Source of the DNA: Escherichia coli
GTDB lineage: Bacteria; Pseudomonadota; Gammaproteobacteria; Enterobacterales; Enterobacteriaceae
NCBI RefSeq assembly: GCF_003334355.1
Contig: NZ_QOWP01000041.1
Direction: 5' to 3' (one strand)
DNA: 28,749 nucleotides
The position numbers and the translations under genes are program-made. Below are positions 27,191 to 28,749 of this stretch, in pieces. The notes beneath the pieces were generated by a model, which saw only the letters and a list, made by a program, of their open reading frames with translations, ran no database searches and was not told the origin of the DNA. Position 1 is the first letter of the stretch. Each line of letters opens with the position of its first letter.

Positions 27191-28569
27191 TTAATCTTTC
27201 CAGTTCTGTTTCGCGTCTTTAATAAAGGAGAGCGTCACCATAATGTTGACGAAGAACAGCGGGCATCCTCCGGCGATAATGGCGGTTTGAATCGGTTTCA
27301 GGCCGCCGAGCGCCAGCAGAACAATACCGATAATGCCAACCAGAATTGACCAACCGATACGCACCAGCAGCGGTGGTTCTTCACCATCGCGTACTTCGCG
27401 GCAAGTGGACATCGCCAGGGTATAAGAGCAGGCGTTAACCAGCGTAACGGTGGCAATAAAGCAGAGGATGAAGAAGCCCCACATGGTGGCGGTGCTGAGT
27501 GGCAGAGCGGCCCAGGTTTCGATGATGGCGCGCGCCACACCGTACTGTTCGATCAGATTTGGAATGTTGATGATGTTTTTATCCATCAACAGCAGAGTGT
27601 TACTACCGAGCACGGTCCACAGGATCCAGGTGGATGCTGTCAGCCCCATCACCATGCCGAAGCACAGTTCACGCACAGTACGACCACGGGAGATGCGGGC
27701 GAGGAAGATACTCATCTGGATGGCGTAAATCACCCACCATGCCCAGTAGAACACGGTCCAGCCCTGCGGGAAGCCGCCTTTAGCGATGGGATCGGTATAG
27801 AACAACATTCGCGGCAGATACATCAGCAACATCCCCACCGAATCGGTGAAGTAGTTCATGATGAAGCTGGCACCGCTGACAATGAACACCCAACCCAGCA
27901 TCAGGAAGCTCAGGTAACTACGCACGTCACTGGCGATACGTACCCCTTTTTGCAGACCGCAGGCGACGCAAATGGCGTTGAGGATAATCCAGCAGGTAAT
28001 GATGATAGCGTCCAGTTGCAGGGTATGCGGAATGCCAAACAACCATTGCATACACTCGGTCACTAGCGGCGTGGCAAGGCCCAGACTGGTACCCATCGCG
28101 AAGATCAAGGCGACGAGATAGAAGTTGTCGACGATGGTACCGAACAACCCTTTGGCGTGTTTTTCACCTACCAGCGGCACCAGTGTCGAGCTGGGGCGAA
28201 TCACTTCCATTTTGCGGACAAAGAAGAAGTAAGCGAAGGCGACTGAAAGGAAGCTGTAAGTGGCCCACGGCAGAGGTCCCCAGTGGAACAAGCTGTAAGC
28301 CAGCCCCAACTCTTTCGCCCCTGTCGAGTTCGGTTCTAAGCCAAACGGCGGGGTGGAGATGTAGTAGTAGATCTCAATCGATCCCCAGAACAGTACGGCA
28401 GCAGACGTACAGGAGGCGAACATCATAAAGATCCAACTGGCGGTGCTAAATTCTGGCGGTTCGTTACCTAAACGCTTTTTGGCATACGGGCCAAACACCA
28501 GCCAGAACCAACCGAAAAGCATCACCACCATATACCATTCAAATGCCCATCCCCATACATTGGTGACGT
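27191..28569 (-). pseudogene. caiT: caiT (L-carnitine/gamma-butyrobetaine antiporter, BCCT family) truncated at its 5' end by an IS1 insertion
   Basis: The CaiT frame is continuous from 27191 up to 28569 (…[32 protein letters not shown]…) and then abuts the IS1 terminal inverted repeat at 28570. About 45 N-terminal codons, the start codon and the promoter lie beyond the insertion. Confidence 0.85.
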
Positions 28570-28749
28570 GGTGATGCTGCCAACTTACTGATTTAGTGTA
28601 TGATGGTGTTTTTGAGGTGCTCCAGTGGCTTCTGTTTCTATCAGCTGTCCCTCCTGTTCAGCTACTGACGGGGTGGTGCGTAACGGCAAAAGCACTGCCG
28701 GACATCAGCGCTATCTCTGCTCTCACTGCCGTAAAACATGGCAACTGCA
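28570..28749 (+). mobile_element. IS1 insertion sequence, left end (element continues past the window end)
   Basis: ggtgatgctgccaacttactgatttagtgtatgatggtgtttttgaggtgctccagtggcttctgtttctatcagctgtccctcctgttcagctactgacgggg... matches the IS1 inverted repeat and insA 5' region as I recall them. Confidence 0.9.
28625..28749 (+). CDS. insA: IS1 InsA (partial, 5' portion only)
   Basis: GTG start at 28625; translation begins [40 protein letters not shown], the InsA zinc-finger N-terminus. Truncated by the window end. Confidence 0.8.

Follow-up and report, generated by a model that had tools for sequence, protein, structure and literature searches.

In the classical polar IS1 mutations of gal and lac, IS1 lies promoter-proximal in a polycistronic operon, the first gene is cut, and the intact downstream genes are silenced. 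IS1 insertions are classically strongly polar. The cai genes of Escherichia coli are transcribed as one polycistronic mRNA, which is induced anaerobically by carnitine (PMC2131755). The cai and fix operons share one intergenic promoter-operator region, and deleting caiA has a polar effect on caiB and caiC (PMC3680233). Target duplications generated by IS1 are 8-9 bp long (PMC12428005). In this study, we analyzed a 28,749-nt stretch of an E. coli draft genome (contig NZ_QOWP01000041.1 of assembly GCF_003334355.1; hereafter, the window), in which caiT, the transporter gene at the head of caiTABCDE, runs directly into the left end of an IS1 element. Nothing relevant on IS1 in caiT turned up in the literature, nor did any mention of the assembly accession.

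The caiT-IS1 junction

The window reads CATTGGTGACGT followed by GGTGATGCTGCCAACTTACTGAT, with the break between positions 28569 and 28570; past the break, CATTGGTGACGT continues as GGTGATGCTGCCAACTTACTGATTTAGTG. In intact caiT genes, GGTGACGT is followed at this place by AACTGAATACAG; past the break, GGTGACGT continues as AACTGAATACAGC. Alignments of the window to E. coli PSS-12 (NZ_AP027697.1), the closest complete genome (99.97% identical to the window), and to eight other relatives all end exactly at 28569. The next base, 28570, is the first of the 23-bp left inverted repeat (IRL) of IS1. A break at base 1 of the IRL is the signature of transposition and not of a random chimera. The initial annotation of the window had the caiT frame open to 28569, the IS1 inverted repeat beginning at the next base, and the insertion about 45 codons into caiT. 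Translation and the IRL match bear out these coordinates, and the missing nt 1-136 amount to 45 codons plus one base.

Positions 27191-28567 translate without interruption into CaiT residues 47-504 (458 residues plus stop), and bases 28568-28569 are the final two bases of codon 46, so that codon 46 of 504 is split after its first base. The intact caiT of PSS-12 has 504 codons and reads NAVFSY/VTNVWGW at the break. The remnant is identified as caiT by PF02028, by residues 47-504 in frame, by a single nucleotide difference to PSS-12 caiT, and by caiA 30 nt downstream. It has neither the start codon nor the first 45 residues of the complete 504-residue CaiT, no start codon for the caiT frame was found between the in-frame stop inside IS1 and the ATG of Met59 (28531), and the gene list of the source contig names no caiT product. 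In this strain, caiT is a gene remnant, or pseudogene, and not a functional CaiT gene. Judging from the hydrophobic stretch at residues 14-30, loss of residues 1-45 would remove the first membrane helix.

The 446-aa open reading frame (ORF) starting at Met59 was tried as a truncation marker and rejected, since the look-up mostly returned genomes without IS1 called between caiT and fixA. Many such assemblies list a 446-aa CaiT from Met59 and not the 504-aa protein. These calls appear to reflect the start-site choice of the gene caller; because they occur in genomes without IS1 between caiT and fixA, a 446-aa call is no evidence of truncation.

The element is identified as IS1 by the 23-bp terminal inverted repeat at its exact end and by an insA frame that starts about 55 nt inside the IRL. 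The IRL is joined to caiT nt 137, and insA reads away from caiT. The 180 nt of IS1 in the window, which are identical to three complete copies (Table 1), show one mismatch to five other complete copies (IS1 position 127, T vs. C). The inward-facing promoter-like site listed in Table 1 is presumably the IS1 transposase promoter, given the known position of PIRL. The contig stops at IS1 position 180, because the draft short-read assembly broke at the repeat; the remaining 588 nt of IS1, where insB', a programmed -1 frameshift, and the right inverted repeat would be expected, and the far side lie outside the window. The window is the entire contig, with base-for-base identity over the last 15.7 kb. 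By the PSS-12 annotation, window 1-19, at the left end of the contig, belongs to a transposase pseudogene of the IS421 family (IS4-like); the contig thus stops at a repeat boundary of the short-read assembly on both sides.

A draft short-read contig that ends in a repeat could also result from an assembly artefact, either as a chimeric join between caiT and the repeat or because IS1 was carried by only a minority of the culture. We regard such an artefact as highly improbable. The break falls exactly at IRL base 1, IS1 has used this target in other genomes, and two samples have the same contig on record, which speaks against a one-off error.

The IS1 event is recent. Between caiC and caiT (window 23728-28569, 4,842 nt), PSS-12 differs from the window by a single mismatch, at 27313; over window 1-25000, there are 7 mismatches and one homopolymer indel, none beyond 20512. 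In PSS-12, caiT is intact, the cai-fix intergenic region measures 471 bp, and fixABCX is present. An origin of the window in Shigella, suspected at first from its richness in IS1, was rejected in view of the 99.97% identity to E. coli PSS-12. The same CaiC allele occurs in nine other contigs, and caiT is 504 aa in all nine. The three closest relatives show 5-8 mismatches per 15.5 kb against the window, with alignments that all end at 28569, and no IS1 is present in the cai-fix region of the close relatives. The event is younger than a divergence of about 3-5 × 10^-4 per site, which is an upper bound only, and is recent on the evolutionary scale. It is apparently private to the recent lineage of this strain. 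A recent insertion had been proposed from the window itself, and the comparison with sister strains, in which the nearest relatives all have an intact caiT, agrees with that proposal.

Expected effect on the cai operon

Downstream of the remnant, the operon order caiT-A-B-C-D-E is preserved, with caiF beyond it on the opposite strand. Window 20513-27312 (caiF to caiA) is base-for-base identical to PSS-12, in which these genes are annotated as intact. From caiA to caiE, the ORFs measure 380, 405, 522, 297, and 203 aa, in agreement with the published lengths (PMC2131755). The initial annotation had described caiA, caiB, caiC, caiD, and caiE as intact; full-length ORFs and DNA identity to PSS-12 confirm this and extend it to caiF. 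The position directly upstream of the caiT remnant is occupied by IS1, and the 471-bp intergenic region is outside the window. The remnant and caiABCDE are therefore separated from the cai/fix intergenic promoter region, as had been claimed, and adjoin IS1 instead.

In the proposed sequence of events, caiTABCDE would be transcribed as one mRNA from the CaiF/CRP/FNR-dependent cai-fix promoter, which would now either be lost or lie beyond IS1, at a distance of at least 768 bp. If a cai promoter survives, its transcripts would need to traverse 768 bp of IS1 in the direction opposite to the IS1 genes. Since the only described operon promoter is upstream of caiT, loss of induction is the expected outcome. 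We infer that, when induced anaerobically by carnitine, the strain should lack CaiT and produce CaiA-E at a low level or not at all; the IS1 event very probably silences caiABCDE. If polarity holds, the strain would be Cai-negative, with no conversion of carnitine or crotonobetaine to gamma-butyrobetaine in anaerobiosis and, hence, loss of carnitine/crotonobetaine respiration.

Several considerations weigh against this expectation. Expression and phenotype are both deduced from sequence, and the polarity of IS1 and the presumed lack of internal cai promoters are taken from published K-12 work rather than from this strain. Carnitine also enters the cell via ProP/ProU (PMC2131755), so that loss of CaiT alone need not abolish conversion if caiABCDE are still expressed.

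Continued expression of caiABCDE after an insertion as described would require an outward or hybrid promoter, read-through across IS1, or an unmapped internal promoter, and only the transporter would then be lost. IS1 ends can contribute the -35 box of a fusion promoter (Prentki, 1986, cited in PMC9330008), and the IRL of the window carries an outward TTGGCA that could serve as one. The hexamers at 16-18 nt from it are AATGTA, ATGTAT, and TGTATG, none of which is usable as a -10 box, and a hybrid promoter at the IRL-caiT junction was rejected on this ground. In a consensus scan of 1.65 kb, no sigma-70-like site crossed the junction on the caiT strand. The scan returned three promoter-like sites vs. 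1.2 ± 1.2 in shuffles: the inward-facing one inside the IRL, one just upstream of caiA (27167-27140), and one within the caiT remnant (28449-28422, 9/12), the last of which speaks for continued expression. Any such promoter would be without CaiF/CRP control, and the polar effect of the caiA deletion argues for a single upstream promoter (PMC3680233). We consider continued expression improbable. The IS1-borne or hybrid outward promoter that the initial annotation had allowed for as an escape found no sequence support at the junction, either in the scan or by hand inspection.

IS1 insertions and deletions at the cai-fix locus

The most likely form of the event, and in our judgment a somewhat probable one, is a simple insertion in a single step, with 8-9 bp of the target duplicated. 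IS1 would have transposed into caiT such that its left end became joined to caiT nt 137. The duplication would consist of TGGTGACG(T), and caiT nt 1-145, the promoter region, and fixABCX would lie on the far side. There, the IS1 right end, AAGTTGGAGTCAYTACC, would be followed by (T)GGTGACGTAACTGAATACAGC; that is, the right inverted repeat (IRR) would be followed by (T)GGTGACGT-AACTGAATACAG, caiT nt 136-1, and the cai-fix intergenic region. Because no close relative carries IS1 in this region, a simple insertion requires one event and a deletion two, and parsimony favors the one-step insertion. Two points count against it. The far side is beyond the contig, and a survey of the locus gives a substantial prior that something other than the remainder of caiT follows there.

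Briefly, 5,426 complete E. coli genomes were surveyed, and one representative per distinct pattern was fetched. A query of 670 nt of caiT joined to the IS1 left end matched 14 genomes, and the same caiT segment joined to the IS1 right end (opposite orientation) matched 13. Junctions were mapped against PSS-12 in window orientation, which puts the window junction at 4842, the caiT ATG at 4978, and the fixA ATG at 5450; the position given for a clean insertion is that of the final base of the flank on the caiT side. Within roughly 0.85 kb, which runs from caiT nt ~250 across the intergenic region and up to fixA nt ~120, about 18 independent IS1 events were found (Table 1). They span 26 of the 5,426 genomes, this contig, and one metagenome contig. 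Thirteen target-site duplications of 8-9 bp were mapped at the locus; seven other events had no duplication, through deletion, or were unscorable. Among the independent events in other genomes in which IS1 abuts a truncated caiT (n = 10), five were clean insertions and five were deletions.

The junction may thus be real even though the caiT 5' end, the cai-fix promoter, and possibly fix were lost or moved elsewhere through an IS1-mediated adjacent deletion, IS1-IS1 recombination, or an inversion. All five deletions just mentioned reach fixA or beyond. Adjacent deletions by IS1/Tn9 are well documented (PMC9330008; Turlan and Chandler, 1995, cited in PMC12428005). Against this, two events would be needed on a short private branch whose closest relatives are without IS1 in the cai-fix region, and five clean insertions occur nearby, one of them at the same target. 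We rate such a rearrangement as possible rather than probable. If it took place, the effect on caiABCDE would be the same or stronger, and fixABCX would be damaged or lost too. For caiABCDE, the outcome is the same with insertion or deletion; the difference is the survival of fix. IS1-associated deletion is common enough at the cai-fix locus that a simple insertion should not be assumed, even where, as here, the one-step insertion is the preferred reading.

Further searches were directed at the two junctions and the lineage. An exact-pattern scan of JGI metagenomes for the left junction gave 0 matches. The predicted right junction gave 0 matches in GTDB representative genomes, in which the left-junction control also gave 0, the source assembly being absent there. 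The predicted N-terminal fragment of CaiT (49 aa if the duplication is 9 bp) had no exact-protein record, which is uninformative, as the source gene list omits even the 458-codon remnant. The rare YaaU allele of PSS-12 is private to PSS-12, and no lineage-specific alleles were found in the next 50 kb of PSS-12. The lineage YaaU allele (I37) gave 59 blocks; the matches listed, with 19 similar places collapsed, did not include the source contig.

Two other 9-bp sites recurred at the locus. The 9-bp site at fixA nt 42-50 (5491-5499), GGATATTGC, is the duplicated target of a clean IS1 insertion in EC21Z-137 and also the far breakpoint of two separate deletions (CP61/ES2 and KTa005), which have different caiT starts and different IS1 variants. 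This suggests either a second strong IS1 target or deletions between two IS1 copies. The 9-bp intergenic target TGCTACGCC (5272-5280), which lies between repeated TTTCAATATTGGTGA motifs, was duplicated in both IS1 orientations (JX4-T and B-1109 vs. PRO_A-2576), and the insertion of the CX strains is 5 bp away.

Three control regions, none of them AT-matched, were queried by the same design in the left-end orientation, for which the cai-fix zone gave 14 genomes (8-9 sites). The caiC/caiB control matched 0 genomes, nhaA matched 6 genomes with one span length (probably one site), and rihC matched 2 genomes with one span length; these neighboring controls, with 0-1 sites each, gave far fewer hits than the cai-fix zone. 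The zone is an island of AT-rich DNA. The GC content is 31% in the cai-fix intergenic region, 44% in caiT nt 1-250, and 40% in fixA nt 1-120, vs. 52% in caiT overall; just beyond the zone in fixA (from about nt 150), 50-nt windows have 52-64% GC. The duplicated 8-9-mers are mostly GC-richer words within AT-rich flanks, a pattern that fits the known target preference of IS1; hence, the clustering in the cai-fix zone is probably mechanistic. Alternatively, the zone may be hit beyond its AT-richness because loss of carnitine/crotonobetaine respiration was repeatedly selected, with the window as one convergent case and half of the events then expanding into fix deletions. We consider such selection unlikely.

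Table 1. Features of the window and IS1 events mapped at the cai-fix locus. Frame W, window positions; frame P, PSS-12 positions in window orientation. Clean insertions have 8-9 bp duplications; for deletions, the two positions are the end of the caiT side and the point at which the sequence resumes.
Feature	Frame	Position	Strand or location	Basis, genomes, or remarks
caiT remnant, nt 137-1515 of 1515 (residues 47-504, two bases of codon 46, and stop)	W	27191..28569	-	Translation; PF02028 BCCT
Longest ORF left in caiT remnant, 446 aa from Met59	W	27191..28531	-	ORF list; PF02028 BCCT
IS1, left 180 nt	W	28570..28749	+	180/180 identical to three complete 768-bp IS1 copies
IS1 IRL, GGTGATGCTGCCAACTTACTGAT	W	28570..28592	+	23/23 match to IRL of 20 complete IS1 copies mapped at the locus
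Promoter-like site CTGCCA-16-TATGAT	W	28577..28604	+	Consensus scan; faces into IS1, away from caiT
insA 5' part, 41 codons + 2 nt	W	28625..28749	+	GTG start at 28625, ended by contig end; PF03811 Zn_ribbon_InsA, 41-aa partial product
Predicted IS1 target, TGGTGACGT	W	28561..28569	.	Would be repeated on far side if simple insertion with 9-bp duplication
caiA, intact, 380 aa	W	26018..27160	-	DNA identical to PSS-12 caiA, WP_000347117.1
caiB, intact, 405 aa	W	24672..25889	-	ORF; identical to PSS-12
caiC, intact, 517 aa annotated	W	23045..24598	-	ORF to 24613, 522 aa
caiD, intact, 261 aa annotated	W	22151..22936	-	ORF to 23044, 297 aa
caiE, intact, 196 aa annotated	W	21555..22145	-	ORF to 22166, 203 aa
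caiF, carnitine-pathway activator, intact, 131 aa	W	20951..21346	+	
Clean insertion, 8-9 bp duplication	P	4743	caiT	CAVP879, CAVP880
Clean insertion	P	4810	caiT	SCU-308, OW968011; 1335KP only by the same hit pattern as SCU-308
Clean insertion	P	4820	caiT	H1827/12
Clean insertion	P	4832	caiT	Metagenome contig
Clean insertion	P	4841	caiT	HCP17S3_I4
Clean insertion	P	5070	intergenic	Br_190_kylling
Clean insertion, both orientations	P	5280	intergenic	JX4-T, B-1109, PRO_A-2576-6M-A_ESBL
Clean insertion	P	5285	intergenic	CX strains
Clean insertion	P	5499	fixA	EC21Z-137; CT29 only by the same hit pattern
Clean insertion	P	5522	fixA	EC931
Clean insertion	P	5566	fixA	Res13-Lact-ER07-18
Deletion, 762 bp	P	4728 to 5491		KTa005
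Deletion, 669 bp	P	4821 to 5491		CP61_Sichuan, ES2
Deletion, 573 bp	P	4898 to 5472		HCM-25C-3
Deletion, 1,129 bp	P	4887 to 6017		22F46
Deletion, 5.6 kb	P	4872 to 10496		20A24; fixABCX, yaaU, and part of kefF lost

Neighboring features and comparison with known systems

Other features of the window were noted in passing. Between caiF and caiE, two direct palindromic units resembling repetitive extragenic palindromic sequences or bacterial interspersed mosaic elements (REP/BIME) are located at 21376-21458 and 21466-21548 (83 nt each, 95% identical); the unit reads GCCGGATGCG...CGCATCCGGC. Between nhaR and rpsT, a decayed block (3005-6983) contains a frameshifted fimbrial gene, a 5'-truncated usher gene, and a frameshifted espX1, and the genes of this block are annotated as pseudogenes in PSS-12. 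The homopolymer of the fimbrial pseudogene (3660-3667) is T8 in the window vs. T7 in PSS-12, and the gene is out of frame in both.

The work is a small point for the study of gut carnitine metabolism by E. coli. It illustrates that draft contigs ending in IS elements hide the difference between insertion and deletion and that IS1 favors AT-rich control regions. The locus survey could seed a population-genomic look at carnitine-pathway loss.

A close counterpart is HCP17S3_I4 (NZ_CM149871.1), in which IS1 used the same target. Its duplication, TGGTGACG, matches window 28561-28568, which stops one base before the window junction; as in the window, caiT is split at codon 46 and the genes from caiA onwards are intact. 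The target resembles the IS1 end (GGTGACG vs. GGTGATG). HCP17S3_I4 differs in that IS1 is in the opposite orientation, with the IRR beside the caiT body, in its genomic background (98.9% identity), and in a far side that identifies a clean insertion. Given the opposite orientation and the different background, the two events are independent. In CP61_Sichuan/ES2, KTa005, HCM-25C-3, 22F46, and 20A24, IS1 likewise abuts a caiT without its 5' end, caiA onwards is intact, and the junctions are 21-114 nt from that of the window. Unlike a simple insertion, these five deletion types have lost from the far side the 5' end of caiT, the promoter region, and some or all of the fix genes.

Compared with the gal and lac mutations, the window represents a natural isolate and the caiTABCDE operon, and its polarity is predicted. 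The bgl control region is likewise a short AT-rich control region beside GC-normal coding DNA in which independent insertions (IS1/IS5) cluster. However, the bgl insertions turn on a silent operon, for which they are selected, whereas the cai-fix insertions should inactivate by cutting off activator sites. The cai pathway has itself been reported to be repressed by H-NS (PMC2131755). The IS1 event in caiT is an ordinary, recent gene inactivation, and nothing in it goes against current understanding.

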